Below, one piece after another: positions 12,044 to 45,911 of a stretch of DNA of 64,000 nt. The stretch comes from a virus. The stretch is taken from the IMG/VR virus record IMGVR_UViG_3300045004_000088, positions 128,001 through 192,000 of that record. One strand, written 5' to 3'. The position numbers and the translations under genes are program-made. A model generated the notes under the pieces. It was not told the DNA's origin and did not search any database. It saw nothing but the letters and a program-made list of their open reading frames with translations. Positions within the stretch are counted from its first letter, which is position 1. The number at the start of each line of letters is the position of its first letter.

Positions 12044-12409
12044 ATGTTCAAAAAATGGCTCGTCTTACGCGAAAACGATGAATCAGCCTTCATTCAGGCC
12101 ATCAAAGCGAACCCGACAGACCGCACGCTCTGGCTGGTCTACGCCGACTGGCTAGATGAACACGACCGCCCCGAAGAGGCGGCGGCAATCCGCAAGGCTA
12201 AAGCCGCCCCTCCTCCGAAAAGCCGACAAGTCAACAGCATGGGCGAACGCGAGTACCAGAGCTTCGGTACTTGGCGGAAAGCGATCATGACCGAGTTCCC
12301 CGGAGCCACATTTGACGGCAACAAGGACATTGCACAAGCATTGTTCTACGGTACGGGTGTCGGCGAATGGGACGGGGAACGCGGGGTCATCTACGCCAGG
12401 AACAGTTAA
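12044..12409 (+). CDS. TIGR02996-like (repeat-companion domain) protein
   Basis: ANPTDRTLWLVYADWLDEHDRPEEAAAIR matches a motif that is expanded in Planctomycetes and Myxococcota. Confidence 0.55.
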   Translation: MFKKWLVLRENDESAFIQAIKANPTDRTLWLVYADWLDEHDRPEEAAAIRKAKAAPPPKSRQVNSMGEREYQSFGTWRKAIMTEFPGATFDGNKDIAQALFYGTGVGEWDGERGVIYARNS

Positions 12410-12864
12410 GACTTGCCTTTGCCGTAGTGTCTAGCAATGGCGCGAGCTACGTCCGGCCAGATCCTGCGAACACCGGGGTGCAGGTTCTTTGACGTGATGT
12501 GTGACAGCGGCACCCATTCGTAATCGCTGCTCTCGTCACTCAACTTGACGTTGTACGGCTTCTCAATGGTCATCAGATACGTCTTGAAGACGTGGTGGCC
12601 GTCCTGATCGGTGAAGTCATCGATCCGCGTCATCGACGGCAGATTGCCACTCTCTTCTTTGGCCTCACGGTGGGCCGCGCCGATGTCCGATTCGCCCGAC
12701 TTCACTTTGCCGCCAGGAATGGCCCAGGTGTTGGGTTGGTCGCACGGCGGCTTCCGCTTCAGCAAAAGAACCACATCACCGTCCGTCATGAACAGACCGG
12801 CTCCACGTTTGCCGTACCGCTTCTTGCCGCCGGCACCGATTCGCGAAAACCCGGATTTACTCAC
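12406..12864 (-). CDS. Nudix hydrolase
   Basis: Nudix box GGKVKSGESDIGAAHREAKEESG (GX5EX7REUXEEXGU). Confidence 0.7.
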   Translation of the reverse strand: MSKSGFSRIGAGGKKRYGKRGAGLFMTDGDVVLLLKRKPPCDQPNTWAIPGGKVKSGESDIGAAHREAKEESGNLPSMTRIDDFTDQDGHHVFKTYLMTIEKPYNVKLSDESSDYEWVPLSHITSKNLHPGVRRIWPDVARAIARHYGKGKS

Positions 12865-13436
12865 TTCGGACCCCTCTTCAAAGGAACCGCTTTCAGCTTC
12901 TCAAGGTGCTTGTCGGGAACGCCCTTGAGGTGGTGCATCATGTTCTTCAACTTGTTGGCGATCTGGTTGGCACCAGTGCCGTCAACGACTTTGGAACTGT
13001 TGACTGAAACGGTCTTGCGGTCGCGATTGTAGAACCCGCGAGACATCACAAACGAGTGATGTTGTGGATTGAAACTGACGAGTCCGACCCATTCGCCGTC
13101 GTCCCAGTTGCGGCTGGAAACGAGAATGCGAAGCGGTTTCTCGTCAAACACCAACTTGACGTGGTATCCGTTGTTCTTCAGAGCCGCGCTGACGTAGCCC
13201 AGACAAATCTTGGCGAACGCTTCTTCGGCGTCTTTCAGGCTTGTGCGGTAATTGACTTCGACGCTGTAACGGGTAGATTCAGCCCCTTCGAGCAACATCT
13301 CATCGGGTTCGTCTTTGCAGGCTTCGGTGAAGAAAGCGACGGCCGTTCGTGCGAGCGCGGGGACGCTCACTTCGACAAAATGCTTGCCGACGATTTCGTT
13401 GACCAGTTTCTTTCGGTAGTCTTTCCAAGAACGCAT
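12861..13436 (-). CDS. hypothetical protein
   Basis: 191-aa ORF, 4-nt overlap with the downstream Nudix gene (operon-like). Confidence 0.55.
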   Translation of the reverse strand: MRSWKDYRKKLVNEIVGKHFVEVSVPALARTAVAFFTEACKDEPDEMLLEGAESTRYSVEVNYRTSLKDAEEAFAKICLGYVSAALKNNGYHVKLVFDEKPLRILVSSRNWDDGEWVGLVSFNPQHHSFVMSRGFYNRDRKTVSVNSSKVVDGTGANQIANKLKNMMHHLKGVPDKHLEKLKAVPLKRGPK

Positions 13437-13437
13437 G

Positions 13438-14073
13438 TCACCCCATGATGATGCCGTGGGCCTTCAACCACTCGGCGAATGCCACTTTGTCGTATTTACT
13501 CCTCTTGGAAGTATTCTGCCTGCCGGATAGTGGCTGAAGATTTTCCAGGCAGTTAATCAGCTTCGGGTCAGTGATGCCATTCTCGATAAAGGCATTGATC
13601 GGGAAAATGTGATCGAGGTGCCAAGAGCCGCCACAAACTTTGGCATAGTTCGGATGCGACAAGACGTAAGTCTGAAGTTCCTTTGGGGTGTATCCCAAAA
13701 TCTCGTGAGTACGGCGAGCCTTTGTAGTCTTTCCGGCTTTCAAACTCGATGACAAAGCTTTGTAAATCTTCTTGCGGAAGAGTTCATTCTCTCTGGCCTT
13801 CTGGCGGTCGGCGATCCACTGATAGTTGTTGGCTCCACTGACCTTCTTTATCCATTCTCGATTGTTTGACCGCTTCTCTTGAATCTTCTTCAAGCCGCAC
13901 TCATAACAGTTCTGTTTTTGATGAACGAAAGCGCCAAGTGTGACAGCAGACATGTTGCCACACTTGCAACGATAAGCCACTGGCGTAACACTGTTCTTGT
14001 AAACAGTGTCAAGCAATTCGCATCCGCGATCAGCAAACATCTGGCGCACTTGTTCTATGGTGAATTTTCTCAT
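13438..14073 (-). CDS. HNH homing endonuclease
   Basis: WHLDHIFPI...NLQPL...N HNH motif; lower-GC island; Met 23 of ORF 13438..14139 (longer alt start at 14139). Confidence 0.65.
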   Translation of the reverse strand: MRKFTIEQVRQMFADRGCELLDTVYKNSVTPVAYRCKCGNMSAVTLGAFVHQKQNCYECGLKKIQEKRSNNREWIKKVSGANNYQWIADRQKARENELFRKKIYKALSSSLKAGKTTKARRTHEILGYTPKELQTYVLSHPNYAKVCGGSWHLDHIFPINAFIENGITDPKLINCLENLQPLSGRQNTSKRSKYDKVAFAEWLKAHGIIMG

Positions 14074-14107
14074 GCCATATTGTAGTGCATTATAATTGGA
14101 AAATGTC

Positions 14108-15010
14108 TTATCCCATGACGATGGGCAACTGCCCATCACCGAATCTGGTGATCAGTCTCTCTTCCCATTCCTTCTTTTCCTCGCGGCCCTCTTGCAACAG
14201 AGTGTCGCCGTCGAGTTGTACGCCGCCGTTCGGCCCAGGCGGGTTTTTGATCTTGCTCCTGATTCGGCCGAGCATGATCTTGGCGAAACACAACGCCCCT
14301 TCTTTCATGGCGTGAGCCACACGGCCCCAGTCCTTGTGCTTCTGAATGTAGTGGACGGCCACCTTGTGTACCCGGTACGGGATCGGGTAGATCTTGATGT
14401 GTTGGAAGTCGCCCAACCACTCCCACCCGCCCAGGTTAGAAGCGATTCGGGAGTACATTTGTTCGTACTGCTTGTACAGAACCCACTCGCCCATCCTGCC
14501 CCAGATCGGCTGGATCGGGTCGATCATGCCGCCCTGAATGCTGGCATAGGCACCGCCCGGATAGAAATACTCGACCGGCAGCGAACCGCCCAGGTCGGAC
14601 GCGGCGAACGCGAACGAGCCAGTTTCCTTGTACCGCACCTCTCGGATGTAACCGATTTCCGGCGGAAGTTTGTAAACGCTTTGGCCCGGCGTTGTGTTAA
14701 ATACGAACCACTCGAAGTATTCGCGTGGGGCGTACTCCTCGAATACTGCGAGTGCTTCGTCCACCGCGATGTCGAGTTGTTGATCGTTGAGTTCGATCAC
14801 GACTTCCGGCGCACCTAACATGGCGAGAACGTAGTCTTTGATCTGGTCTATTACCTTTGATCGGTCGCGTCTCGGACCCAGTTGTTTGATGTCCAACGGA
14901 TCGGCTACACCGAGGCCGTTGCCGCCGCCACAGCCACTTGCACAAACACCGCCGCCCTGCGTGTAAGAAGGGCGGGGCAAGACGATTTGATTGCTACCAC
15001 AATTTCCCAT
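14108..15010 (-). CDS. hypothetical protein (MGNCGS, Gly/Cys-rich N-terminus); possible virion component
   Basis: 300-aa ORF at the head of a minus-strand cluster; function not recognisable. Confidence 0.55.
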   Translation of the reverse strand: MGNCGSNQIVLPRPSYTQGGGVCASGCGGGNGLGVADPLDIKQLGPRRDRSKVIDQIKDYVLAMLGAPEVVIELNDQQLDIAVDEALAVFEEYAPREYFEWFVFNTTPGQSVYKLPPEIGYIREVRYKETGSFAFAASDLGGSLPVEYFYPGGAYASIQGGMIDPIQPIWGRMGEWVLYKQYEQMYSRIASNLGGWEWLGDFQHIKIYPIPYRVHKVAVHYIQKHKDWGRVAHAMKEGALCFAKIMLGRIRSKIKNPPGPNGGVQLDGDTLLQEGREEKKEWEERLITRFGDGQLPIVMG

Positions 15011-15017
15011 TGTGAGG

Positions 15018-15025
15018 TATATAGA
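15018..15025. promoter_or_regulatory. GTATATAG motif in a divergent intergenic region
   Basis: Lies between the minus gene start 15010 and the plus gene start 15056; same element as at 27424 and 18700. Confidence 0.3.
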
Positions 15026-15055
15026 TTAGCAACAGGAAGGTTTCAGAGATTGGTA

Positions 15056-17755
15056 ATGAGCAAGACTTTCTCAAGCTTCTTCAACGAACTGTACTACACT
15101 AAGGACCACGCTTATAGACGGCTCCGTCTGTTCAGCGAGATGGCGAAGCCCTTCCACATCTACAAGAAACCCATCGTGTTCGACAACACCGACGCGAAGT
15201 TCCTGTACCAGTTCCCTCGTAAGTTCTGGCTCCAGGCGATGGTGATGAGGTATCGCACCGACCTGTTCAAAGCGCTCAAGGGTCGTCACGACAACCGTCA
15301 AAAGCTGTTCGACCGGAAATACGAAGAGGTTCTGCCAGAGATTCAGAAGCGGTTCGCCAAGAAGAAAAACGGCGACAAGCTCGCTCGTCGGCAGGCAATT
15401 TTGGTGGCCGAAGAGTACGCCGCCAAGCACGACATGGGCAAGCTCGAATTCCCGAAAGAGAAGACGTACACGTTCAAGCCCGCCGGCAAAGCCAAGCCGG
15501 TCCAAATCAACGCCAAGACGTACATGGACCAACTGGTTCACAAACTAGAGGGCGAGTACGGCGACCCGAACGGTTTCGACTTGGAACACCCGCGTCGTGG
15601 TCACGACGGCCGTCACATGTCAACTCGCGGCTTCAACTTCCCCACCGTTGACACGATCCGCGAGATGATGAGCGAATGGTTGAACTACATCGGTCACCAC
15701 ATGCTCGGAGAACTGCCCGGCGAAGGCGACGGCATTCACTGGCGGGCCGACCACGCGGGCGGTTCTGGGAAGACCCGGTTCGATGACACGTTCACCGTAA
15801 ACCGCATCAAAGAGGAGAGGTTCAAATACTGGTACGACCGGCTCCCGACCGAAGAGAACCCACTCCGACTCTGGCAGGAAGTCATGCCGGAAGACAAGAA
15901 GGGTGCCAGCACCCAAGAGATCAGGAACAACAACAGCAAACGAGAAAAGCTCGCCCGCGCTTTGGCCGAACGTGACGTTCGTCAAATGGCAGCGGACGGC
16001 AAGATACGCACACCGCCGACTCCGCAACACCCGGAAGGGCGGGTCGTTGACGTTGACGACCAGGGCGACATCAAACACCCGTCACTGCACATCCCTCACA
16101 AGAAGGTGAGCATCCGATATTTGAACTCGGACGGCGAAGAAGAGACGGCTGAAGAAGAGGTGCCGTACCTGCTTCCGGGCGGATTTTTGCGCAAGCTGTC
16201 GCCGGCCGAGAGCGACAGCATGGACGACGGAATCAAGACCGGCAAGCACTGGAACCCCGACAGCAAGCGGTTCGAGTCCCAGTATGTCTCGGTAACCGAT
16301 CACCCGGCCGCAGGCATGCAGGGTACGGATCACATCCGCGCCGGCGCTCTCAACCCGAACAACAACTCGACGGGCCGCAAGTTCCTCGATCCGAGCGATC
16401 CGAGCTACGACGAGCGTCTGGACCGGCTGAACGAAGAGATCGGTCTGAGGAACGACGGACAGTCGGCAGAAATCTACGATGCTATCGAAGCGGCTTTGAA
16501 GGCCGGCGGCACCGGCGGCATGGGAAACCACGAACGCCAAGTCCTGATGATGATGAAAAGGGATCTTCACAACTTGGCCTACATGATGTTGGTCGAGAAC
16601 TTGGACGAATCGGACAGCCGAATCTTCAACCCTGAGTGGCGGAAAAGGAAGATCCGCGACATGGTTGCGAAGTACGGCCAGCAAGACTGGGGTCGTGGCA
16701 GCCGGCGTCTTCGCGGATCAAAAGAAACTGACAGTCTGGATTCGGAAGTCGAAGAGGACGGTGAAGAAATGACACTAGCCGACAAGCTCCGCCAGCAGTT
16801 GACCAAAGCGAAGCAACAGGCTCTGGCTCTGAGAGGCAGCGGCAAGTGCAAGGTGGGGTCGGGGGAAAAGAGGTTGAACACGGGGGAGTGCCAGTTCGAG
16901 TACGACCTCAGACAACTTCACGCCATGCTCGACTCGGCCGACACCGAGGCCGCGAGTGCCGACGCCGACATCAAACGGGGTGAAGACGCGATTGACGGCG
17001 ACACGATGGGCGCGGGGGTTCAGGGCAAGCTCGACGCGACCTTCCGTGCTTTCACGGTGTTGAAGGCGCAGTTCGTCAACATGGGGCAGCAAGAGAAAGA
17101 GGCAGAAGAGTCGGCGATGGCGGCTTTGAAGGAGATCCTTCAGGACGACCCGCCCGCCAAGAGCATCATTTCTCGCGTGAGATACCGCATCAACAAGTTG
17201 GCCTCGAAAGCCGGCGAAGATGTGGAGAAGGCGAAGCTACAGCCAGTTGACCACGCTGCGGGTGCGGAACAAAACGAAGAGGAGATCCGAGACGCGGCGA
17301 CGAAACTGGGGGTGGTGGAAAAGACGCTCACGGGATTCCTTGAAGCCGGCAAGATCGAGCAGTATCTGTCGCGTGTCGAAACGCCGCACTTTGACGAAAC
17401 CATCAAGCAACTGATGGAGAAGTACCCGACTTTGAAGCCGCGTTATGACATGCTGTTGAAGCAGATAGCCGACGTGAAGAAGCAGAGGGAAATGGTGATC
17501 GGGAAGGCTCCGAACCTCCCGCAGACCAGAGAATCGAATCGGTTTAACTTGATTAGCTTGCTTCAAGACAACCGGCTCGACTTGATCCCGTTCAACACCC
17601 AGTTCAGAAGAATGGTCGGCGAGGGCAAGATCTTGTTGAAAAAAGTTCAAGAGATGCTGGAAGAGTTGAAGTGGCGGCAGGGAACGCTTTTGGCCCACCC
17701 CGATGACAAGGAAGCTATTGAGGCTTTCGAGGAGATCATCGGAGGCAAGAAGTGA
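15056..17755 (+). CDS. large hypothetical protein (~899 aa) with a coiled-coil-rich C-terminus; possible virion or assembly protein
   Basis: Met 59 of ORF 14882..17755 with RBS-like AGGAAGG upstream; no recognisable catalytic motifs. Confidence 0.6.
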   Translation: MSKTFSSFFNELYYTKDHAYRRLRLFSEMAKPFHIYKKPIVFDNTDAKFLYQFPRKFWLQAMVMRYRTDLFKALKGRHDNRQKLFDRKYEEVLPEIQKRFAKKKNGDKLARRQAILVAEEYAAKHDMGKLEFPKEKTYTFKPAGKAKPVQINAKTYMDQLVHKLEGEYGDPNGFDLEHPRRGHDGRHMSTRGFNFPTVDTIREMMSEWLNYIGHHMLGELPGEGDGIHWRADHAGGSGKTRFDDTFTVNRIKEERFKYWYDRLPTEENPLRLWQEVMPEDKKGASTQEIRNNNSKREKLARALAERDVRQMAADGKIRTPPTPQHPEGRVVDVDDQGDIKHPSLHIPHKKVSIRYLNSDGEEETAEEEVPYLLPGGFLRKLSPAESDSMDDGIKTGKHWNPDSKRFESQYVSVTDHPAAGMQGTDHIRAGALNPNNNSTGRKFLDPSDPSYDERLDRLNEEIGLRNDGQSAEIYDAIEAALKAGGTGGMGNHERQVLMMMKRDLHNLAYMMLVENLDESDSRIFNPEWRKRKIRDMVAKYGQQDWGRGSRRLRGSKETDSLDSEVEEDGEEMTLADKLRQQLTKAKQQALALRGSGKCKVGSGEKRLNTGECQFEYDLRQLHAMLDSADTEAASADADIKRGEDAIDGDTMGAGVQGKLDATFRAFTVLKAQFVNMGQQEKEAEESAMAALKEILQDDPPAKSIISRVRYRINKLASKAGEDVEKAKLQPVDHAAGAEQNEEEIRDAATKLGVVEKTLTGFLEAGKIEQYLSRVETPHFDETIKQLMEKYPTLKPRYDMLLKQIADVKKQREMVIGKAPNLPQTRESNRFNLISLLQDNRLDLIPFNTQFRRMVGEGKILLKKVQEMLEELKWRQGTLLAHPDDKEAIEAFEEIIGGKK

Positions 17756-17824
17756 CATCCTTCAGTGAATGGCTGGTCCAGAGACAGTGGCCCCCGCTTA
17801 TTACCTTCGGCAACTGGAGCGACG

Positions 17825-30202: not shown

Positions 30203-30203
30203 G

Positions 30204-35203: not shown

Positions 35204-35839
35204 TCATCTCGATCCCAAATAAGTGTCGGCATTGAGCATCGAATGGTGCAGAGCATGAGCGTTCCCAAGAACGTCGTGGAACTTGGGCTGCAAGAACTGT
35301 TTGTACGCTTCGAGCATCTGAACCGCGCAAACACGCGGCTCCATCGCTCCAATCGCGGTTCCGAGGCCCGGACACAGCATCGAGTCGATCTTGTGGGCTT
35401 TGGCCGCTCGTAGGGCCGCACGGAACGCCAAGAAAGCGTTAACGGTCTGCCCGACTTTCATCGGCACACGCATGGTCGGGGCCGAGATCAAGTAAGGCGT
35501 GCGGTTCACGCGGGCGTTGTGTTGAGGATGATGCGGCAGCGTCTCCCTCATGTCGATCACAGCCGCCTGTCCGACCAAAAGCTCGCCGTCGAACTCGGTC
35601 CAGATCTTGGCGCGAAGGTTGTCGCCGATGCCCCAACCGAAGTATTCGCTGTAGACGAAGTCGATCCCGCCGTCCATGTAGCCGAACGAGTTCGCGGGAC
35701 TGACGATGCTCATCACATCGAGGTGTTCGCCCTCTTGGAAGATGTCGCCACAAGAGGCTTTGATGTTGTTGTTTCCCGCGAAAACTTGTTGCCAAGCGCG
35801 GACGAGTTCTGGATTGCGGTCGCGAAGGAAGATTTTCAT
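35204..35839 (-). CDS. macro-domain protein (ADP-ribose binding/processing)
   Basis: Met 76 of ORF 35204..36064; VMSIVSPANSFGYMDGGIDF resembles the macro-domain NAAN...GGGV signature; weak RBS. Confidence 0.55.
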   Translation of the reverse strand: MKIFLRDRNPELVRAWQQVFAGNNNIKASCGDIFQEGEHLDVMSIVSPANSFGYMDGGIDFVYSEYFGWGIGDNLRAKIWTEFDGELLVGQAAVIDMRETLPHHPQHNARVNRTPYLISAPTMRVPMKVGQTVNAFLAFRAALRAAKAHKIDSMLCPGLGTAIGAMEPRVCAVQMLEAYKQFLQPKFHDVLGNAHALHHSMLNADTYLGSR

Positions 35840-35893
35840 GCAGTAACCAAATATTCGCGGCGAAAAATTAGCGCAAGTTACTTGTAATATATT

Positions 35894-36139
35894 ATGAGCG
35901 TAATTTACTTCCTGGGTCTTGAAGACCAAGCCGGACTCGACAACCTCCTCGCGATCCGCCAAGAGAACGAACGCAGGCAGGCTCTGACTTTCGATGACTA
36001 CCAACTGCCGGCCTTCTACGAAAACACAATGCCCGACATTCGTCGCGTAGACAAATGCGGGCATATCTTTGAGGCCGTGAAGGTCAACAACGACACGTTC
36101 GTGCTGACCGTTGGTGGCAACGCCTACGGAGCCAAGTGA
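35894..36139 (+). CDS. small hypothetical protein
   Basis: 81-aa ORF; no SD but an AT-rich TAATATATT stretch just upstream (possible leaderless transcript). Confidence 0.45.
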   Translation: MSVIYFLGLEDQAGLDNLLAIRQENERRQALTFDDYQLPAFYENTMPDIRRVDKCGHIFEAVKVNNDTFVLTVGGNAYGAK

Positions 36140-36598
36140 TCACAGGCCGATCTGACGCCGCATCGCGGTGATCTTTTCGAGCGGCATCCAGTCGGCGAAA
36201 TCGCCCGCGTCGTACAGTTCGGCGAGTTGATCGTAGCTGACCCAGTTCCAGCCTTCGCACTTGTGCGGCTCGGCGTTGACCGGCTCGCCCGCGACCCAGT
36301 CGGCCACCATGAAGATCGTGATGTAGTGCTTATCGTAGTTCTTCATCACGTCGTTGGTGACGAACACCGCGTTCTGCACGGGGAAGGTACGCACACGCAC
36401 CTTGAAGTTCGGCCCGCACTCTTCCCGCAGTTCGCGGAACAGGCACTCTTCCCACGTTTCGTTCCAGTCGAGATGCCCGCCCGGAAACGAGAGCAGACCG
36501 GCCGCGTGTGAGCCTTTCCGCCGGCCCACAAGAACCTTCCCGTCCTTGATGACCATCACGCCGATCCCGACACGCGGGTTCTTTTGAGGGGAATCCAT
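36140..36598 (-). CDS. Nudix hydrolase (second copy in the window)
   Basis: Nudix box GGHLDWNETWEECLFRELREECG. Confidence 0.7.
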   Translation of the reverse strand: MDSPQKNPRVGIGVMVIKDGKVLVGRRKGSHAAGLLSFPGGHLDWNETWEECLFRELREECGPNFKVRVRTFPVQNAVFVTNDVMKNYDKHYITIFMVADWVAGEPVNAEPHKCEGWNWVSYDQLAELYDAGDFADWMPLEKITAMRRQIGL

Positions 36599-36641
36599 GT
36601 TTTCCTCGTTTTCTTTGCATGGAAGACGCTTTTGGCGTCCC

Positions 36642-37079
36642 TTATAAGGATAGAGGCTCGTCTTCTTGTCTGGCGTACTCGGCGGCGACCGAATGCTTCT
36701 CTTCCAGTCGCCGCAGTTCGCTCTCGAACTGTTCGAGTCGGCTCGCGTCGGCGTGGTAAATCAGCGTGCCGCCGTCGCCTGAGTGTGAACCGTAGTAGTG
36801 TCCGGGCTGGCCGGGTACAGGAACCCCGTCTTGAATCAAGACGGCCTGTTCGGGGGTCAGCTTGACAATTTTTGGATAACCCTTTTCATCAAGCGGAGCC
36901 ACACCCGGATCGCCGTACTTCGCGATGTAGCCCGCCAGATCGCCGCCGCAACGAGCGATCCATTGTCGTTGTTCTCGCACCTTCTGCCGGGCGGCGAAAA
37001 TCAGCTTCAGCCCTTTCATGGGAGTCCTCAAGAAAACACGGGCGACTCTTGTTGCTTCGAGCCGTTCAGCTTCCGTCAT
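36642..37079 (-). CDS. hypothetical protein
   Basis: 145-aa ORF in a tightly overlapping minus operon. Confidence 0.5.
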   Translation of the reverse strand: MTEAERLEATRVARVFLRTPMKGLKLIFAARQKVREQRQWIARCGGDLAGYIAKYGDPGVAPLDEKGYPKIVKLTPEQAVLIQDGVPVPGQPGHYYGSHSGDGGTLIYHADASRLEQFESELRRLEEKHSVAAEYARQEDEPLSL

Positions 37080-37893
37080 CGGACACCATCGGGAGTGAAA
37101 TCCGGGTGCCTTCTTTCTTGGCCTTCGGCTTCTTGGGCTTCACCTTGACGGGAACGAAAACGTGTCCGTTGGGGAATGCCCTGTATTCCTTGCCGTCGAG
37201 GGTCGGGTCAGCACCCGACTTGAACGCCGACCCTTGTTTGTAGAAGAACACCACGCCGGCCTTGTCGCAACGGTCCTTGATGTCCCGCGCCCACTGGGGA
37301 TCGTGCTGGCGATAATCGGTTCCGCTTTCGCCGCCGAAGATGAGCCAGTGTAACCCGGACAGATCGAGCTTGTCCAGAGGGCCACAGGCGGGTTCGTAAG
37401 AAACGAACCGCACCACGGCCGGAACCGACCGCAGGTGATCGGCACGCGAGACGTAGTCGTTGTTCTCGATTGTCGATCCGATCCAGACGTTCGGGTAGCC
37501 CGCACCCCAGTCCGAAGGCAAGCTCTGGAGGATGCGTTCCGGCCGCTTGGTGAGCAACTGCCATGTCAGTTGCGGGGTGGCGCGGATCAACGGCCACAGT
37601 TTCTTGAGTTCCTCGATGACGGTCGGGTGATCCTCGAACACGTCACACATGCTGGAACAGAAGACGAGGTGACGGACGCCGTCTTTGGTCGCGACGTTGT
37701 TCCACTTCAGGGGTTCGCCCCAGTGGAGATCGCCGAAGACGCGGCGCGGTTTGGTCTTGCCCCAAACGTCAAACTTGTACCGCAACGCCCAAGTTTCGGC
37801 GTAGCAGTTTTTGCACGCGGGGCTGACCTTCTCGCACCCCCAGACGATGTTGAAGGTGCGGTTGGTCCAAGAAATGGTTGTGACTTCAGCCAT
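37066..37893 (-). CDS. phage Gp37/Gp68 family (DUF5131-like) protein
   Basis: N-term ISWTNRTFNIVWGCEKVSPACKNCYAE is characteristic of the family. Confidence 0.6.
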   Translation of the reverse strand: MAEVTTISWTNRTFNIVWGCEKVSPACKNCYAETWALRYKFDVWGKTKPRRVFGDLHWGEPLKWNNVATKDGVRHLVFCSSMCDVFEDHPTVIEELKKLWPLIRATPQLTWQLLTKRPERILQSLPSDWGAGYPNVWIGSTIENNDYVSRADHLRSVPAVVRFVSYEPACGPLDKLDLSGLHWLIFGGESGTDYRQHDPQWARDIKDRCDKAGVVFFYKQGSAFKSGADPTLDGKEYRAFPNGHVFVPVKVKPKKPKAKKEGTRISLPMVSDDGS

Positions 37894-38152
37894 TGACGGG
37901 TTCCTCCGTAATCTTGAAGACGCCGATCAGGTAGTCCACGAAACCGTCGTGGACGTAGTCGCGGGCGAACTCGTTCGAGCCTTCGGGAACGGTTCCCATC
38001 CGGTTGCTCAGTTTCTTGACTTGGGCTGCGAACGCTCGCGCGTCTTCGATCTTATCGAAATTCTTCTTGAAATCATAGCGACCGTTTTGCAAGCTGCCAC
38101 CGCCACAGTTGTACTGGTAGCAGACGAAACGGACCTGATAGAACGTTTTCAC
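37886..38152 (-). CDS. small hypothetical protein
   Basis: 88-aa ORF, 8-nt overlap with the downstream gene. Confidence 0.45.
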   Translation of the reverse strand: MKTFYQVRFVCYQYNCGGGSLQNGRYDFKKNFDKIEDARAFAAQVKKLSNRMGTVPEGSNEFARDYVHDGFVDYLIGVFKITEEPVNG

Positions 38153-38529
38153 TTCAGTTCTCCGTCAACTTTGAAGACTTCGCCTTTGACGACCACGGTG
38201 ACGGGCCACAACACCACCGTGTACGGGCCGCGTTCCTTGTCGTTCTTGCTGCGTGCCAATTCGGAGGCAATGTCCTTTTCAGCCTCTTCGCGAGTCTTGT
38301 AGCTCCGCGAGTAAACGACAACGTGGCCGTACTTGTCGTAGGCGGTGTACTCGTATCCGCCGAACCGCCCCACGTTCACAGTCTGGGTGTCGCGGATAGC
38401 CAACTGCTCCGGTTCGCGAGGTTCACCGCGCCAGCCACAGTTGTTGCAGCGTTGTTGCAGCGATGCCCACACCCAACAGTCTCTGAGGGGTTGGTCGCCG
38501 TTGCAGTTCGGGCAGTTGGAGTATTTCAT
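38149..38529 (-). CDS. zinc-ribbon hypothetical protein
   Basis: 126-aa ORF; CPNCNG...CNNCGW. Confidence 0.5.
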   Translation of the reverse strand: MKYSNCPNCNGDQPLRDCWVWASLQQRCNNCGWRGEPREPEQLAIRDTQTVNVGRFGGYEYTAYDKYGHVVVYSRSYKTREEAEKDIASELARSKNDKERGPYTVVLWPVTVVVKGEVFKVDGELK

Positions 38530-39796: not shown

Positions 39797-39826
39797 CAGC
39801 GGGCAAAACGGCCCGCTGTGTGGTTG
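39797..39826 (+). terminator. strong hairpin after the DGQHR gene (no U-tract)
   Basis: CACACAGCGGGC-caaaac-GCCCGCTGTGTG perfect 12-bp stem. Confidence 0.4.
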
Positions 39827-39912
39827 AATCGGAGAAATTCGGCGCAAAACCGGAGAGTCCGATTCGGGGTGCTTTTGGATAGTGAGACGACATCCTCAAC
39901 CCGGTGACGCAA

Positions 39913-41526
39913 ATGCGCGACGAAAAATTCGACTTTTGGTTGGCGAACGGTTTCAACCTCTGTCTGGTCGGACACCACGGCGTCGGCAAAACGGCGTTGG
40001 TGAAGTCCTGCTTCGAGCGGGCCGGTCTGGTCAAAGACAAAACCTACATGTACTTTTCGGCGTCCACACTCGATCCGTGGGTGGACTTCGTGGGCGTTCC
40101 GCGTGAACGGACCATCGACAAGATGCCGCCGGAATTCGGCATCATCCGCGAACTCGCGGTCGTGAACGAAGACCTCGCAGTCGAGTGGGTCATGTCCAAC
40201 TGGAAGCTCAAGGAAGCTTCCGCCAAGAAGACCGTGTCGCACGCGCTCGGTCGCAAAGAGGGCAAGACGTTCCTCGAACTCGTTCGCCCGGAAGCGTTCG
40301 CGAACGACGACCTCGAAGCGATCTTCATTGACGAGTTCAACCGCGCACCGAAGAAGGTGCGGAACGCCGTCATGGAACTGCTCCAATTCAAGAGCATCAA
40401 CGGCAAGCGGTTCCCGAAGCTCCGCGCGGTCTGGACGGCGATCAACCCCAACGACGACGAGCAGCAGAAGTACGACGTGGAAGAGATCGATCCGGCACAG
40501 ATGGACCGCTTCGTCGTGTCCATCAAGGTCAGCTACAAGCCGAGTCTCGACTGGTTCGTCAAGGAATTCGGCACGCAGGCCGGCAAAGCGGCGGTCCAAT
40601 GGTGGACCGACCTCCCGCCCGACGAACAGAAGAACGTCAGCCCGCGTCGGCTGGAGTACGCTCTGCGGATGTGGGAGGCTCGCGGCGACGTGCGGGACGT
40701 GCTTCCGGGTTCGTCGGGCGTCAAGAAGCTGCTCAGTGCGTTGGACACCGGCCCGATCTCCGAGCGGATCGAGGCGTTGTTCAACAGCGGCGACAAGACG
40801 GCCGCGAAGTTGTTCCTCACCAACGAGAACAACTACGATTCGGGCGTCAAGGTGATTGTCGAGAGCGAAGCGATGATGGAGTTCTTCCTCCCGCTCTTGA
40901 ACAAAGAGAAGATCGCGGTTCTGCTCTCGGACAACCAGCGGGCGCGGACGATGATCTGCTCGTCGTTCAAGGCCCACGACGTGTTCCAGCACGCGATGCG
41001 GGAGATCTTGGAAGCGAAGCAGAACAAGCCGCTCATGGCACAGATCCGCAAAGCTCTGAGCGAGAGTGTCGTCCAGAAGGCGGGGTTCGGTCCCGACTCG
41101 AAGGCGGGTGAGAAACCCGAACCGCCGCACTTCGTTCGCGGGGCCGACAAGATCGCGGCGTGGGGTGCCAAGATCGCGGAACTGAAGCAGTTGCCGGTGG
41201 ACGCCGCGCAACAGCGGACGGCGATCTACAACCAGATGGTCGCCCACATTCCCGAAAAGATGACGGGGGACGAAGCCCTCGGCACACTCGAACTGCTCAA
41301 CGGGCTGATGCAGCGGGCGTGGCAGACCGCCCTAACGTCCGACACCGCGACGGGCATGAAGCTGGTGGTCAACATGGCGAACCACGCCATCGCGCAACTG
41401 GCAATCAACAAATCGATGTCGTGGAGTGACATCCTCGACAACTACATGAAGAAGATGAACTACCTGTTGGACAAGGTCCGCACCGCCGGCCTCGCCAACA
41501 AGATCTTCACACCGGCGAAGGGCTGA
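39913..41526 (+). CDS. MoxR-like AAA+ ATPase
   Basis: Walker A LVGHHGVGKT; Walker B/sensor IFIDEFNRAPKKVRNAVMELL; ATG at 39913 with GGTGA RBS (a GTG at 39904 is also possible). Confidence 0.7.
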   Translation: MRDEKFDFWLANGFNLCLVGHHGVGKTALVKSCFERAGLVKDKTYMYFSASTLDPWVDFVGVPRERTIDKMPPEFGIIRELAVVNEDLAVEWVMSNWKLKEASAKKTVSHALGRKEGKTFLELVRPEAFANDDLEAIFIDEFNRAPKKVRNAVMELLQFKSINGKRFPKLRAVWTAINPNDDEQQKYDVEEIDPAQMDRFVVSIKVSYKPSLDWFVKEFGTQAGKAAVQWWTDLPPDEQKNVSPRRLEYALRMWEARGDVRDVLPGSSGVKKLLSALDTGPISERIEALFNSGDKTAAKLFLTNENNYDSGVKVIVESEAMMEFFLPLLNKEKIAVLLSDNQRARTMICSSFKAHDVFQHAMREILEAKQNKPLMAQIRKALSESVVQKAGFGPDSKAGEKPEPPHFVRGADKIAAWGAKIAELKQLPVDAAQQRTAIYNQMVAHIPEKMTGDEALGTLELLNGLMQRAWQTALTSDTATGMKLVVNMANHAIAQLAINKSMSWSDILDNYMKKMNYLLDKVRTAGLANKIFTPAKG

Positions 41527-41596
41527 AAACTTCGACGCAAAACCGGAGGGTACACGCAACCTGCGTGTACCCCTCGTAGCCAATACGGAGACTCAC

Positions 41597-43072
41597 ATGT
41601 CCGACGAAATCGCTCCCGAAGTTGAACCCGAAGTCGAAGTCGCACCGCAACCGGCCGAGCCGAAGCCCTTCAAGTTGACGGGCGACGAGTGGCGCGAAAT
41701 GCTGCTCTCCCTCGAAGAACACCACGGCGTGTTTTACAAGTTGTGGTCGATGGGCATGCCCATCTTCACCACCCAGATCGACACCGCCGCAGTCTCGTTC
41801 AGCAAGGGCGGCGACTTGGTGGCGTTCCTGTTCAACCCGCACTACTGGCAGAAGTGTACCCCCTACGAACGCAAATTCGTGATCTGTCACGAGGCGTTGC
41901 ACGTCATCCTGAATCACGGCGTCCGCATCAAGGACTCCGAAGATCGGGAGATGAGCAACATCGCGCTCGACGTGGTCGTCAACCACATGCTCACCCGGTG
42001 CTTCGCGTTCGACCGCGACCAGATCAGCAACTGGGAAAAGCTGTGTTGGGTGGACACCGTGTTCAAGCGGCCGGACGGCAAGATCCGCCACGACCCGCGT
42101 ACCTCGCGACCCATCGCGGAAGACGAGTCGTTCGAGTATTACCTGAACATGCTCGCCAAGCACGGCATGCCGAAGTGCGGCAAGGGCAAGCAGGGGCAGG
42201 GCAACCCGTGTCAGGGTCAACAGGGGCAGGGCGGCGGTCAGGGGAACCAGCAAGGTGACGGTCAGGGTCAGCAACCCGGCGACGGGCTGCAAACACTGGA
42301 CGATCACGAAGTGATGAGCGATCCCGACAACGATTGGGGCGCGGTCATCGACCGACTGGACGAGGAACTGTCGGACGACGAGAAAGAGACGATCAAGTCT
42401 CAAATCGAGAAGCACTTTCAGCCGTCGCCGTCGCAACGTGCTGGTACGCATCCGGGCGGGCAGTGGCACATCGCGAACGTGAAGAAGGTGCCGAAGAAGA
42501 AGAAGTGGGAATCGGTCATCAAGAAGTGGGTCCAGACCAAGATTCAGGAAAAGGACAGCGACGAAGAACAGTGGTCGCGGCTGAACCGCCGGATGGTGAT
42601 GCTCCCGCGCGACATGTTCCTGCCGTCGCAGATGGAAATCGAGGACCGCGTCAAGGACAAGAACCGCATCAAGGTGTTGTTCTTCCTCGACACGTCCGGC
42701 TCGTGCTGGCACCTGAAGGACCGCTTCTTCACGGCCGCGACGAGCATTCCCGAAGACCGATTCGACGTTCGCCTCTTCTGCTTCGACACGTCGGTCTACC
42801 CGACCGATCTGAAGGACAAGAAGATGCACGGCGGTGGGGGGACGTACTTCCACATCCTCGAACAGTACATCCAGAGGATGATGCAACAGGACGGCGACGG
42901 GCGGTATCCCGATGCCGTCTGGGTTCTCACTGACGGGTACGGCGACCGCGTCACACCGGCGATGCCCGACCGCTGGTACTGGTTCCTCGAAGGCAGTATG
43001 ACCGCGAAGTCACTGACTTCCAGCTACTGTCCCGAAGAATGTGCGGTTTTCAAGCTCACCGATTTCGAGTAA
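41597..43072 (+). CDS. VWA-domain protein with N-terminal HExxH putative metallopeptidase domain (DUF2201-like partner of MoxR ATPases)
   Basis: CHEALHVILNHG HExxH; LFFLDTSGSC MIDAS-like; GGAGAC RBS; directly downstream of the AAA+ gene. Confidence 0.65.
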   Translation: MSDEIAPEVEPEVEVAPQPAEPKPFKLTGDEWREMLLSLEEHHGVFYKLWSMGMPIFTTQIDTAAVSFSKGGDLVAFLFNPHYWQKCTPYERKFVICHEALHVILNHGVRIKDSEDREMSNIALDVVVNHMLTRCFAFDRDQISNWEKLCWVDTVFKRPDGKIRHDPRTSRPIAEDESFEYYLNMLAKHGMPKCGKGKQGQGNPCQGQQGQGGGQGNQQGDGQGQQPGDGLQTLDDHEVMSDPDNDWGAVIDRLDEELSDDEKETIKSQIEKHFQPSPSQRAGTHPGGQWHIANVKKVPKKKKWESVIKKWVQTKIQEKDSDEEQWSRLNRRMVMLPRDMFLPSQMEIEDRVKDKNRIKVLFFLDTSGSCWHLKDRFFTAATSIPEDRFDVRLFCFDTSVYPTDLKDKKMHGGGGTYFHILEQYIQRMMQQDGDGRYPDAVWVLTDGYGDRVTPAMPDRWYWFLEGSMTAKSLTSSYCPEECAVFKLTDFE

Positions 43073-43089
43073 TCCGGCCTATACTGACC

Positions 43090-43120
43090 TCGTGTAACTC
43101 ACGAGGTCAGTTTCTAGGAG
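43090..43120 (+). terminator. hairpin terminator
   Basis: CTGACCTCGTG-taact-CACGAGGTCAG followed by TTTCT. Confidence 0.5.
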
Positions 43121-43126
43121 ACGGAA

Positions 43127-43624
43127 ATGAATCAGCAGAACGAAGAAACCCCCGCACAGAAAGCGGCCGAAGCGGTCGGGTGTGGCATGATCGCGGCGGC
43201 GGTCGTAGCCCTCATCATCGTCATGTTCATGGCGCAAATCGATTCGGCCAAGAAAACGGCTACGGACTGGCTGGAACGGTCGAAAACGCCGGCCGGGTAC
43301 ATCACGGGCAAAGTTACCAACGTCAAAACGTGGCAAGAAGAAGACTTCAAACACAAAGAAGGCAACCTGACCCTGACGCTCCCCATCAGGGATCGTTGCG
43401 AGGTCACGTTCAGCGACGGCCGGACACGCAAGTTCGTCGGCATGCCGAAAGATACGGTTCCGACCGACAAGGAAATGACGTTCATCTGGGGCGGGTTTGA
43501 CATCCTGCTCGAAGTGGTGGACGCCGAGGAGTTCAAGAAGCGACCCCACAAACCCGGCGACCCGCCGCCACCTCCGAACAACATCGGCGCGGTAGTGGCA
43601 CCGCCACCGGAGAAAAAGACATGA
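43127..43624 (+). CDS. membrane-anchored protein with Pro-rich C-terminus
   Basis: 165 aa; one TM helix (GCGMIAAAVVALIIVMFMA); GGAGACGG RBS. Confidence 0.5.
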   Translation: MNQQNEETPAQKAAEAVGCGMIAAAVVALIIVMFMAQIDSAKKTATDWLERSKTPAGYITGKVTNVKTWQEEDFKHKEGNLTLTLPIRDRCEVTFSDGRTRKFVGMPKDTVPTDKEMTFIWGGFDILLEVVDAEEFKKRPHKPGDPPPPPNNIGAVVAPPPEKKT

Positions 43625-43944
43625 AGGTCCGATTCAACGAGCTACAACGCAAGGCGTGTATCAACGCCACACGTTGTCTGCAAGCGGTCGTGGTCGTGAC
43701 ACTCAACCGCGACCCTCTCGGCGAGACGTGGATCAATCGGGCGGCGCACTTGATGAAGTACATCGGCCCAGAAGCGATCAACCTTTCGGATGCGGACCTG
43801 ACGCCCGAAGAAGCCGTAACGCTTGCGAAAGCTCTGGACGTGATGCACTACGTCTGGACGTTCTCGAAGGAACTCCCTCTGTCGCGGGAAGAACGCAACA
43901 AGGTCTTGAACTCGGTTCGCCAGTGCAAGTCCGCAATCCAGTGA
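43621..43944 (+). CDS. hypothetical protein
   Basis: ATGA start/stop overlap with the upstream gene. Confidence 0.45.
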   Translation: MKVRFNELQRKACINATRCLQAVVVVTLNRDPLGETWINRAAHLMKYIGPEAINLSDADLTPEEAVTLAKALDVMHYVWTFSKELPLSREERNKVLNSVRQCKSAIQ

Positions 43945-43951
43945 GGCCAAG

Positions 43952-45118
43952 ATGGACTTCTCTCGTTTCGTGCCGCCGAAGATGATCCCGTCGCTCCACT
44001 GGTTGGGGCGGCGGGATTGGGTCGAGTACGGCGACATTCCAGACCGCCGACAGGTCTGGGGTCGGCCGAAAGAACTCGTCATCGCCGACAAGCCGGTCGA
44101 AAAGACCTTCTCGGCTATTGGACAATTGGACGACCCGAAGCAGCCGTGGCTGAACCGTCCCGGCAAGCTCTACGTTACCCCGCAAGAGTACAACTCGCGG
44201 CCCGTGGAGTTCTGGAACGAGACGCGGCGTATCTTGCAGTGGTTGGCCCACAATCCGATCAGTACCTTCTTCATGTACGGCATGAGCCGGTCGCTGGCCG
44301 ATGGCGCGAAGATCTTCAAGGCGACCACTCAGCAGTGCCTCGACCTCGCGAGCGACGAAGGCGAGATGACATGCGACTGGCCCTTCGAGGATCACAACCA
44401 GCCGTACCCGGTCTTCATTCTCGAACTGCCCTACGAGTACCAACAGCGGCTGAAGACGATCTTTAAGACGGAAACGGTGCCGTCGCACGTCTTCTGCCAG
44501 CACGAGAAGGACCGGATGATCACCGTCTCCGCGTTCTTCAATCGTGACAACGTGGTCACGCACCTGACGCCCAATCGCGCCGAGTACGCGACCCTCGAAG
44601 ACTCCATCGTCTCGAACCGCCGCCGCCGGTCGAACAGTAGCGACATCGCCGACCCGTCGATCCACCAAGAGAACGACTTCGACGTTGCCGAGTTGACGCA
44701 GCGGTTGGCGATCAACTTCGGAATGTGGATGAGCTTCATCGGCACACACGTCAAGGGTCCGCTTGAGCCGGAAGAGTACGCCCGACTGAAACACGAGGCT
44801 TCACTCACCAGCCACAAGAAGCAACGCCGCGCCCAGAGCGCCCGCGATCAGCTTCTGGGGAGTTTGCAGCAGATCGTATTCGATCAGGTTGTCGAGTTCC
44901 ACGACGAGATCATCGAGGTCGATCCGCGACCGGACGCGGCGGGCGGAACCCACCGCTCGCCCAAGCCGCACCGCCGTCGCGCCCACTGGCGCAAGCAGGT
45001 GTGCGGGCCGAACAACAGCGAGCGGAAGTGGATTCCGATCAAGTCGGTGATCGTGCGGAAGTCGGCCTTCGTTGGTGACATCTCGCAGATGACGACAACC
45101 TACGTCACAAAGAAGTGA
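43952..45118 (+). CDS. hypothetical protein
   Basis: 388-aa ORF. Confidence 0.55.
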   Translation: MDFSRFVPPKMIPSLHWLGRRDWVEYGDIPDRRQVWGRPKELVIADKPVEKTFSAIGQLDDPKQPWLNRPGKLYVTPQEYNSRPVEFWNETRRILQWLAHNPISTFFMYGMSRSLADGAKIFKATTQQCLDLASDEGEMTCDWPFEDHNQPYPVFILELPYEYQQRLKTIFKTETVPSHVFCQHEKDRMITVSAFFNRDNVVTHLTPNRAEYATLEDSIVSNRRRRSNSSDIADPSIHQENDFDVAELTQRLAINFGMWMSFIGTHVKGPLEPEEYARLKHEASLTSHKKQRRAQSARDQLLGSLQQIVFDQVVEFHDEIIEVDPRPDAAGGTHRSPKPHRRRAHWRKQVCGPNNSERKWIPIKSVIVRKSAFVGDISQMTTTYVTKK

Positions 45119-45158
45119 ATGGCCTCTAAATAGAGGCATAAAGACCTTCAAAGAATAC

Positions 45159-45377
45159 TTGGCCGAACAAGACACGAAAAAGGGCGGGGACACCGAAAAG
45201 CAAGACAAATGCCCTTACTGCGGTCGCGCCAAAGGACCGGGTATGTGCATGTTCTGCGACAACGGAATTGGCAAGACCACCGGCTCGATCAGTATGCCGA
45301 AGGTGACCAGCAAAGCCCCCGTTGACAAATTCGGGAAGCTCGACCGGAGCGTTCGCGGCCCGACCAGCATCAACTAA
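45159..45377 (+). CDS. small zinc-ribbon protein
   Basis: CPYCG...CMFCDNG. Confidence 0.4.
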   Translation: MAEQDTKKGGDTEKQDKCPYCGRAKGPGMCMFCDNGIGKTTGSISMPKVTSKAPVDKFGKLDRSVRGPTSIN

Positions 45378-45385
45378 GGTGCCAA

Positions 45386-45571
45386 ATGGAAGACGAATCC
45401 AAGAAGGAAGGCAAACTGCCCGAATGCCCAGAATGCTCCGGGCCTCGCGCCGTGTACTGTCGTCAACCCCACACGCTCCGAATCGAGTGTCCCGACTGCG
45501 GTCTGAAGACCGCCGAGTACGCCGAAGACGCGGGCGGCGTCATGTCTGTTCCGTGGGGACATTTGCTGTAA
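45386..45571 (+). CDS. small zinc-ribbon protein
   Basis: CPECSG...CPDCG. Confidence 0.4.
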   Translation: MEDESKKEGKLPECPECSGPRAVYCRQPHTLRIECPDCGLKTAEYAEDAGGVMSVPWGHLL

Positions 45572-45911
45572 GACCGAACGCCTGTCGAACGTAGTTCCAT
45601 CCGGGGAAGCCGCCGAGGTTGCGATCATCAATGTAGCAGTGGGCGTAAACCTTACGCCCACCGTCGTCGCGGAAGTCATCTTCTCGGCGGTTCTCGTTGA
45701 CGGAATGAACCTCGACGCCGTGTTTCTTGAGGAACCTGACGGCTTCGGTGAGGTACTGACGCTTGCGAGTGTCCTCGCGGCAGGTGTTGAGGACGATGGT
45801 GTGGCCGGCGACGATCAGGTCGCGGAGGGTTTGGATGCCCTCAAGCGGCTCGCCGATGTCCGGGTAGTCATGTTCCACAACAGTGCCGTCGAAGTCTACT
45901 GAAATGATCAT
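45540..45911 (-). CDS. HAD-superfamily phosphatase (possible nucleotide or polynucleotide 3'-phosphatase)
   Basis: Met 22 of ORF 45540..45974 with GGTGA RBS; motif I ISVDFDGTV (DxDGT). Confidence 0.5.
   Translation of the reverse strand: MIISVDFDGTVVEHDYPDIGEPLEGIQTLRDLIVAGHTIVLNTCREDTRKRQYLTEAVRFLKKHGVEVHSVNENRREDDFRDDGGRKVYAHCYIDDRNLGGFPGWNYVRQAFGLTANVPTEQT

Follow-up and report, generated by a model that had tools for sequence, protein, structure and literature searches.

Iyer et al. found a Macro domain in 56% and a Nudix domain in 45% of jumbo phages (PMC9503650), and the two domains co-occur in these phages above chance (PMC9503650, PMC7824862). Phage proteins with Macro, NADAR or Nudix domains are typically standalone and often encoded among morphogenesis genes (PMC9503650); they have been proposed to degrade soluble ADP-ribose derivatives or to serve RNA repair (PMC9503650, PMC7824862). 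Positions 128,001 to 192,000 of the virus record IMGVR_UViG_3300045004_000088, a stretch of 64 kb referred to here as the window, carry genes for two Nudix hydrolases (NudixA and NudixB), a macro-domain protein (Macro) and a HAD phosphatase (HAD). A preliminary description had taken these genes for a cluster of accessory enzymes used either in counter-defence against NAD-depleting or ADP-ribosylating systems or in RNA end chemistry. At face value this would be a multi-enzyme anti-NAD/ADP-ribose counter-defence locus; the evidence points instead to four ordinary accessory genes, that is, to hydrolase genes which are independently placed and individually conserved rather than parts of one system. 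A probability of about 0.6 is given to this reading. With frequencies of 56% and 45%, both Macro and Nudix are to be expected in a phage of ~0.48 Mb, and the preliminary interpretation is essentially the published generic prediction for jumbo phages. All four genes are of kinds known to be common in very large phages, and their occurrence in jumbo phages has already been catalogued, as have both functional readings (PMC9503650, PMC7824862).

The four genes are the following:

12406-12864, minus strand: NudixA, a Nudix hydrolase of 152 residues that starts at a GTG, last in a string made up of a gp13-like neck gene, g21 and the Nudix gene

35204-35839, minus strand: Macro, a 211-residue standalone macro-domain protein assigned to the Macro2 (YMR087W-like) type

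36140-36598, minus strand: NudixB, a 152-residue Nudix hydrolase assigned to the MutT/NUDT15/NUDX1 group

45540-45911, minus strand: HAD, a 123-residue capless HAD phosphatase of the BT0820 family, last in a nucleotide-metabolism string

All four are present where they had been placed, on the minus strand and with intact catalytic motifs, and family matches and motifs agree with each of the domains originally assigned. The coordinates given for them also hold, except for the start of Macro, which is the ATG at 35839 (211 residues) and not that of the open reading frame (ORF) reaching 36064. This longer ORF, of 286 residues, was rejected: the public gene call P0001 is 211 residues long and 100% identical, and homologues are ~200-215 residues in length. 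A six-frame motif scan of the window returned exactly these four ORFs and no others.

The layout of the genes does not bear out a cluster. Together they span 33.5 kb, have 26 and 11 genes between members and fall into three different gene blocks. Between NudixA and Macro lie 22.3 kb and 26 genes, between NudixB and HAD 8.9 kb and 11 genes, and Macro and NudixB are the only two of the four that lie near each other. The genes in between had been described as hypotheticals; they include a gp13-like neck protein, a tail sheath, a gp19-like tube, a T4 baseplate protein, an AAA/DUF2201 pair and an AcrVA2-like protein. Nor is the arrangement that of one operon: the four genes are not contiguous, and an opposite-strand gene separates even NudixB from Macro. 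Conservation outside the close relatives was assessed from the genes lying within 6 kb of 80 macro-family IMG/VR loci, 41 NudixB-like viral loci (gathered with a narrowed NudixB alignment) and 80 HAD viral loci. Co-occurrence was seen at 2 of the macro loci, and at none of the NudixB-like or HAD loci.

Each gene is nevertheless well kept on its own account. All four are conserved in relatives, found on contigs of 51-587 kb, at amino-acid identities of about 62-75%. Their GC content at third codon positions (GC3), 0.72-0.83, is native, the value for all genes being 0.74 +/- 0.065; with no sign of it in their composition, a recent horizontal acquisition was rejected.

The window itself has a GC content of 56% and a mean GC3 of 0.74. 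It encodes T4-like structural proteins, among them a tail sheath, a gp19-like tube, a T4 baseplate protein and a gp13-like neck protein, as well as a class I ribonucleotide reductase, CTP synthase, an SbcCD-like pair, an RNA ligase, a Thg1-like enzyme and six tRNAs. When 20 kb of it was compared by megablast with 50,697 phage records there was no match, and the tail sheath shares 26-36% identity with those of cultured phages over about half its length, so that no annotated close relative could be used for comparison. JGI metagenome contigs as long as 475,914 bp encode proteins identical to the window's, and relatives are found on contigs of 51-587 kb. Given the T4-like genes, the lack of a cultured match and the length of these contigs, the source is an uncultured ‘huge’ T4-like myovirus of ~0.48 Mb.

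Both Nudix proteins score well above the Pfam NUDIX cut-off (PF00293; 21.1 bits), NudixA at 64.3 bits (E 1.5e-17) and NudixB at 74.8 bits (E 8.7e-21). Their Nudix boxes, GKVKSGESDIGAAHREAKEESGN at residues 52-74 of NudixA and GHLDWNETWEECLFRELREECGP at residues 41-63 of NudixB, fit the strict consensus GX5EX7REUXEEXGU. That the two are paralogues of each other was rejected by sequence comparison. A proline ~15-16 residues after the Nudix box is said, after Dunn et al. 1999, to mark ADP-ribose pyrophosphatases; neither protein has a proline at +15/+16 (in NudixB it is at +10 and in NudixA at +2), and against the NadM/ADPRase and NudE equivalog models the two score 16-44 bits, where the cut-offs are 169-449. 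Membership of the ADP-ribose pyrophosphatase subfamily (NudF / NadM-Nudix type) was rejected for both on these two grounds. The T4 NudE clade was also rejected: BLASTP aligned NudE with only 28 residues of NudixA, inside the box, and gave no alignment with NudixB. The likeness between T4 NudE and NudixA is thus confined to the Nudix box, although nudE, like the NudixA gene, sits among late or structural genes.

NudixA belongs to a very small family. In a word-indexed search, 10 relatives were found among 5.8 billion proteins, all of them on huge-phage contigs of the same phage group, and the best tblastn matches among phage records were to an uncultured 595-kb phage and other jumbo phages. Its relatives conserve, at the protein level, an N-terminal GFSRxGxGGKxRYG, which supports the GTG start at 12864, and a C-terminal LHPGxKRIWP. 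The best PDB match is mycobacterial RenU (6uuf), by sequence (E 1.2e-6) and by fold (1.1e-9); the two share the C-terminal LHPG...W element, although the overall likeness is weak, at 31.9 bits. RenU hydrolyses ADP-ribose, FAD and NADH (PMC4401782). The family is tiny, restricted to its clade and weakly RenU-like. NudixA would then be a divergent RenU-like Nudix enzyme whose most likely substrate is an NDP-X compound, for example ADP-ribose, FAD or NADH, and which would be made together with the late neck genes.

The genes next to NudixA are:

12861-13436, minus strand: g21, a 191-residue protein, translationally coupled to NudixA

13438-14139, minus strand: an HNH / endonuclease VII-like gene (phrog_1035, phrog_5104), between the gp13-like neck gene and g21/NudixA

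The start of NudixA overlaps the stop of g21 by 4 nucleotides, and g21 in turn comes after the gp13-like neck gene; the g21 product has no match in Pfam, PHROG or NCBIfam. In a relative (locus L178) a gp13 gene, a 192-residue g21 homologue and a Nudix gene occur in the same order and with the same 4-nucleotide overlap, and the HNH gene is absent from this position. The composition of the HNH gene is atypical (GC 0.47 and GC3 0.57, against 0.56 and 0.74), and it is probably a mobile homing endonuclease.

The macro-domain protein matches Pfam Macro_2 (PF14519) at 35.5 bits (cut-off 27) and Macro at 24.5 bits (cut-off 22), as well as phrog_2613 (E 1.7e-48); PF14519 is also precomputed on P0001. 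Its nearest solved structure is yeast YMR087W (Ymx7; 1njr), an ADP-ribose-1''-monophosphatase, with E values of 1e-6 by sequence, 6.8e-13 by family profile and 1.1e-10 by fold. The structural model has a pLDDT (predicted local distance difference test) of 94, and the next folds, MacroD2, Af1521, DarG and macroH2A, follow at ~1e-5. In YMR087W, residues N80 and D90 are reportedly catalytic (Kumaran et al. 2005), and N50 and D60 of the phage protein align with them. D60 does not vary among 24 homologues and N50 hardly does, and GG57-58, APTMR and PGLGT are also conserved. The phage and yeast proteins have the motifs SPxNSxGxxxGGxD and PGLxTG in common. They differ in that identity is ~24% (TM-score 0.63), in that the yeast protein is 284 residues long and has an N-terminal extension not found in the 211-residue phage protein, and in a 14-residue insert, PHHPQHNARVNRTP, which is the phage protein's own. 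The tRNA-splicing context of YMR087W (Tpt1, cyclic phosphodiesterase) was not found in the window.

A closer kinship with the DarG2/AdfM type of macrodomain was rejected. AdfM and DarG2 have in common with Macro the macro fold and the conserved asparagine of the ADP-ribose site, and DarG structures match it only generically: DarG (5m3i) reaches a profile E of 0.049 and a fold E of 1.2e-5, far behind 1njr on both measures. No PADLOC match was obtained at E<=0.01, DarG models included, and the chimallivirus protein AdfM is not among the 25 phage records matched by Macro. The catalytic lysine of the DarG type is K80 in Thermus aquaticus DarG (PMC13309987). Since YMR087W is the nearest relative by sequence, by profile and by fold, and no PADLOC model for DarG is matched, the protein is assigned to the Macro2 type. 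The only studied member of this clade, from yeast, converts Appr-1''-p (ADP-ribose-1''-phosphate) to ADP-ribose and reportedly has no de-MARylating activity (PMC6397177).

The residues of an ADP-ribose-1''-phosphatase site are thus present in the phage protein, which agrees with the ADP-ribose handling originally proposed for it. Macro is expected to bind the ADP-ribose moiety and, through Asn50 and Asp60, would most likely strip a distal-ribose substituent from a small ADP-ribose derivative to leave free ADP-ribose; candidate substrates are ADP-ribose-1''-phosphate and O-acetyl-ADP-ribose. The family is a large one: 7,447 relatives were counted at E<=1e-5, many on phage contigs, but among cultured-phage records it turns up in only 25. 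In the cultured phages phiN3 and phiRSL1 the homologue lies among small hypothetical genes. Macro2-type macrodomains are widespread, combining more than 7,400 relatives with a single studied member, the yeast one.

NudixB falls into a different part of the Nudix superfamily from NudixA. Its residues 5-128 align with Rickettsia 4kyx, human NUDT15 and Arabidopsis NUDX1 at E ~1e-21, and it shares with 39 homologues the family motifs VTND...KHY and EPxKCEGWxW. Relatives are numerous (1,707 clusters at 50% identity, E<=1e-10), and homologues in cultured phages are annotated as ‘MutT-like nucleotide pyrophosphohydrolase’. The protein nevertheless scores below every equivalog cut-off; the closest NCBIfam model is MutT (47 bits against a cut-off of 97.9), and an NCBIfam scan of 40 relatives returned no equivalog-level name. 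NudixB further differs from human NUDT15, Arabidopsis NUDX1 and E. coli MutT in being phage-encoded, in a cassette with DUF5131 and macro genes. From its alignments it is placed in the MutT/NUDT15/NUDX1 clade and is not ADP-ribose-pyrophosphatase-like. It most likely cleaves (d)NTP-like substrates, and so would serve in nucleotide-pool sanitation or conversion. The preliminary description had named dNTP-sanitising housekeeping activity as the outcome that would speak against its proposal, and NudixB, if rightly grouped, is an enzyme of this type.

NudixB and Macro lie in a cassette on the minus strand (35204-38529, 3.3 kb), wedged between two plus-strand blocks and kept in a clade of uncultured T4-like phages known from contigs of ~0.05-0.6 Mb. 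Along the minus strand the order is two small genes, DUF5131, a small gene, NudixB, g49 (on the opposite strand) and Macro2. The named neighbours are:

35894-36139, plus strand: g49, a conserved gene for 81 residues between the stop of NudixB and the start of Macro

37066-37893, minus strand: a DUF5131 (Gp37/Gp68) protein (PF07505; phrog_2045, E 1.1e-67), in the same cassette as NudixB

The g49 gene is called in all public contigs, encodes 81-99 residues, is kept in four lineages with a conserved N-terminus MSxIxFLGxEDxxG, and has a GC3 of 0.70. The DUF5131 gene is syntenic with NudixB and Macro in relatives; its product matches the PADLOC candidate defence components PDC-M41B and PDC-M30B at E ~1e-57. 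Macro lies 35 nucleotides past the end of a plus-strand block headed by the T4 baseplate protein. A promoter/terminator scan of 34-39 kb was uninformative.

Synteny is expected among related phages in any case, and the pairing of Macro with NudixB was therefore checked outside the clade. Only 2 of the 80 macro-family loci have any Nudix-box ORF within 6 kb, and one of these, L012, is from the same clade, as it also has the DUF5131 gene. Shadow ORFs aside, no neighbour family occurred at more than 5 of the 80 macro-family loci, and a Macro2-family gene was found near none of the 41 NudixB-like viral loci. A general macro-Nudix partnership was rejected by both surveys. The macro gene therefore behaves as a free-standing accessory gene, in line with the description by Iyer et al. 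(PMC9503650).

HAD carries the motif I sequence VDFDGT and starts at the ATG at 45911; alternative starts giving 144 and 132 residues were rejected, as the public gene call P0121 begins MIISVDFDGT at this ATG. It matches the NCBIfam BT0820 family (NF046079) at E 1.4e-30 and phrog_1238 at 3.6e-28. Seven residues of motifs I-IV (D6, D8, T10, T43, K87, D95 and D96) are invariant in 23 homologues. The match to Bacteroides thetaiotaomicron BT0820 (2obb) is full-length, with all four motifs and the same capless size (E 3.8e-19 from the single sequence, 3.3e-34 from the family profile), although at 106 bits the phage protein is below the NCBIfam equivalog cut-off of 165. No other PDB structure is significant with the profile; the next, GmhB, has an E of 0.2. 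A literature search on BT0820 / 2OBB found no published substrate. The family is represented in 176 cultured-phage records, including Lak megaphages and Porphyromonas phages, and by more than 544 IMG/VR matches. The BT0820-type phage HAD thus occurs on more than 540 viral contigs, where its members are mostly unannotated or carry the PHROG-derived label ‘phosphoheptose isomerase’. The label is probably a mistake: GmhB, the sole remote PDB neighbour, is a HAD phosphatase and not an isomerase. Macro2 and the BT0820-type HAD would both be cheap targets for substrate profiling.

The gene stands at the end of a conserved string:

46165-53648, minus strand: string upstream of HAD, encoding PDDEXK_15, a class-II amidotransferase, an unassigned 199-residue protein, CTP synthase and the ribonucleotide reductase small and large subunits (by Pfam)

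HAD closes a 12-kb minus-strand string that runs from the SbcCD-like genes through ribonucleotide reductase, CTP synthase, the 199-residue protein, the amidotransferase and PDDEXK_15. The order from ribonucleotide reductase to HAD, with HAD last, is found in the source contig (L092) and in two relatives (L093 and L094). In the 80 HAD loci, PDDEXK_15 is a neighbour in 8 and CTP synthase in 6, solely where other genes of the lineage are shared. HAD is accordingly pictured as a capless BT0820-type phosphomonoesterase which would be expressed last in a ribonucleotide reductase, CTP synthase, amidotransferase and nuclease string, and whose most likely substrate is a nucleotide or a sugar phosphate. 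In the part of the string downstream of ribonucleotide reductase (46165-50081, minus strand), the amidotransferase is a standalone GlmS/PurF-like protein, and with the 199-residue protein it lies by CTP synthase; the two could point to unusual pyrimidine or base-modification chemistry. On the opposite strand HAD is adjoined by a gene for a 388-residue protein (43952-45118, plus strand) with an AcrVA2-like domain (PF26125, public precomputed annotation), which is kept in L093 and L094 and is possibly anti-CRISPR-like.

The phosphatase had also been proposed to complement the RNA ligase in end-healing. T4 Pnkp, whose phosphatase domain is of the same superfamily, shares with HAD the DxDGT nucleophile motif and the capless architecture; the phage protein differs in having no fused or adjacent kinase, and no kinase domain was recognised beside the gene in the source contig or in L093 and L094. 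Besides HAD_PNKP, Pfam returned generic HAD families only, below threshold. HAD_PNKP itself scored 15.3-15.9 bits against a cut-off of 27.6 and was weakly matched by 5 of the 23 family members (best E 0.0013), and at E<=1 the family profile matched no PNKP structure. Dedicated Pfam models exist for the ‘Swiss-army-knife’ RNA-repair HADs, and the scans returned no further HAD family tied to RNA repair. PMC7824862 cites Burroughs and Aravind 2016 for standalone HADs of the ‘Swiss-army-knife’ kind. The RNA ligase lies 37 kb away from HAD, and a ligase homologue was found within 6 kb at none of the 80 HAD loci. A PNKP-type identity was rejected on the sub-cut-off score and the lack of a PNKP structure, kinase or ligase linkage. 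With neither a ligase at these loci nor a PNKP match, the end-healing idea has no positive support beyond the capless architecture.

The RNA-repair genes and the tRNA genes of the window are on the plus strand:

6894-8108, plus strand: RNA ligase, with an RNA_ligase domain (PF09414, 79 bits) and a PHA02142 N-terminal OB domain

9278-10015, plus strand: Thg1-like 3'-5' polymerase (Pfam Thg1, 84 bits; phrog_4717, E 4.3e-69)

59459-63234, plus strand: six tRNAs (Leu-CAG, two Leu-CAA, Tyr, Phe and Ser-GCT), with small ORFs between

The Thg1-like gene is 1.2 kb downstream of the ligase, and the pair also occurs in L178; Thg1 is only sporadic in jumbo phages (PMC7824862). The ligase and Thg1 genes look like a module for repairing nicks and 5' ends of tRNA, in which neither a kinase nor a phosphatase is recognisable. 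In the window as a whole, no KptA/Tpt1, 2H/LigT phosphoesterase or polynucleotide kinase was recognised. KptA/Tpt1, 2H enzymes and the kinase are those which would generate ADP-ribose-1''-phosphate or require a 3'-phosphatase.

How the four enzymes might work together has been explained in several ways. The preliminary description had them act jointly, as a counter-defence set against NAD-derived signals or toxins or host ADP-ribosylation (Thoeris, DSR, RES, DarTG), in which ADP-ribose set free by the macro protein would be broken down by the Nudix enzymes. The intact ADP-ribose site of Macro is consistent with this, as are the substrates of RenU, the nearest solved relative of NudixA, and the standing of Macro and NudixB as neighbours throughout the clade; the same prediction has been published for jumbo-phage Macro and Nudix proteins (PMC9503650, PMC7824862), and one phage macrodomain, AdfM, has been shown by experiment to be an anti-DarTG2 factor (PMC13309987). 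Macro, however, is of the Macro2 type and not DarG/AdfM-like, the sole studied member of its type is reported to lack de-MARylating activity (PMC6397177), the Nudix protein beside it is of the MutT/NUDT15 type, and the adjacency of the two disappears outside the clade. In addition, the window showed no recognisable gene for an ADP-ribosyltransferase, NADAR, SLOG, a sirtuin or NAD salvage, and HAD has no link to ADP-ribose chemistry. Macro, and perhaps NudixA, would be compatible with a counter-defence role; NudixB, HAD and a joint four-gene system find no support, and as a whole the proposal is considered unlikely, if still worth keeping in view. A narrower version concerns the cassette only, as a dedicated pathway of two steps against a host immune signal or toxin derived from ADP-ribose, which it would destroy: Macro2 would strip the 1''/2'' substituent from ADP-ribose-1''-phosphate (ADPr-1''P), ADPr>P or a Thoeris-type cyclic ADP-ribose, and the MutT-like Nudix enzyme, recruited to a new substrate, would then cleave ADP-ribose. 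If true this would be the first biological role assigned to a phage Macro2-type enzyme, and its chances are put as slim.

Two further explanations rest on the genes around the four. In the one, Macro, a Nudix enzyme and HAD serve tRNA repair with the RNA ligase and the Thg1-like enzyme: HAD would heal 3'- or 2'-phosphate ends, Macro would dephosphorylate the ADP-ribose-1''-phosphate arising from 2'-phosphate transfer to NAD, and a Nudix enzyme would clear the resulting ADP-ribose. The window does encode an OB-domain RNA ligase, a Thg1-like enzyme and six tRNAs, the closest characterised relative of Macro is the yeast Appr-1''-pase linked to tRNA splicing, NudixA is 4.3 kb from the ligase in a Thg1 / ligase / NudixA neighbourhood also seen in L178, and the capless HAD family includes the 5 members with weak PNKP-phosphatase matches. 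The remaining partners (KptA/Tpt1, a 2H/LigT cyclic phosphodiesterase and a polynucleotide kinase), however, were not recognised in the window. HAD lies far from the ligase, within a nucleotide-metabolism string, and shows neither linkage to ligase homologues in its 80 loci nor a PNKP or other RNA-repair HAD match of significance, Macro has no recurrent RNA-repair neighbour in its 80, and NudixA is on the strand opposite the ligase block and coupled to neck genes; a concerted role in tRNA repair is therefore regarded as very doubtful. In the other explanation, NudixA, as part of the neck operon, and the macro/NudixB cassette, lying between the baseplate genes and the following block on the structural side, are virion cargo, packaged or made late, delivered with the DNA and active at the start of infection. 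The coupling of NudixA to g21 downstream of the gp13-like neck gene, kept in L178, would fit this, as would the position of Macro 35 nucleotides beyond the block that begins with the T4 baseplate protein; macro relatives in cultured phages are often annotated near tail genes (Gifsy-1, SEN4/5, P106B, phrog_14717), and Iyer et al. inferred that such proteins are packaged (PMC9503650). On the other hand, the homologue in phiN3 and phiRSL1 sits among small early-type genes, packaging is not shown by gene position alone and no capsid-targeting motif was identified, which leaves this explanation rather improbable.

Several points weigh against the preferred reading of four independently placed accessory genes, or against the functions suggested for them. 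The substrates of all four enzymes are deduced from gene context or homologues, and for Nudix and HAD proteins sequence is a notoriously poor guide to specificity. For NudixA, the margin of RenU over NudI, RppH and MutT is only ~10-fold in E, and the model has a pLDDT of 73. The top PDB match of NudixB, 4kyx, was labelled ‘ADP-ribose pyrophosphatase MutT’ by its depositors. The active site of a capless HAD is open, and macromolecular substrates, nucleic-acid 3'-phosphates for instance, would be compatible with it as well. The order NudixB / small gene / Macro is found in every relative examined, down to 69% macro identity, and from this a functional pairing of Macro and NudixB specific to the clade is conceivable. 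Lastly, ADP-ribosyltransferase, KptA or kinase partners could lie elsewhere in the ~476 kb genome, beyond the 64-kb window.

Some other genes of the window deserve mention. Between the macro/Nudix cassette and the AcrVA2-like gene, at 39913-43072 on the plus strand, a MoxR-like AAA ATPase (537 residues) is followed by a DUF2201_N putative metallopeptidase (491 residues), a pair found in all relatives examined. The tRNA region (59459-63234) has a strongly positive GC skew. A TPR protein encoded at 2248-3744 on the plus strand has a C-terminal region of the glycosyltransferase-9 (heptosyltransferase-like) type, and on the same contig just upstream of the start of the window (locus L010, 1303-3989) there are genes for a COOH-NH2 ligase, a Prim-Pol and an NAD-dependent epimerase. 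Finally, a 121-residue protein (12044-12409, plus strand) contains a TIGR02996 domain (‘rpt_mate_G_obs’; 60 bits, cut-off 29), which is named for Gemmata obscuriglobus and may hint at a planctomycete-like host.

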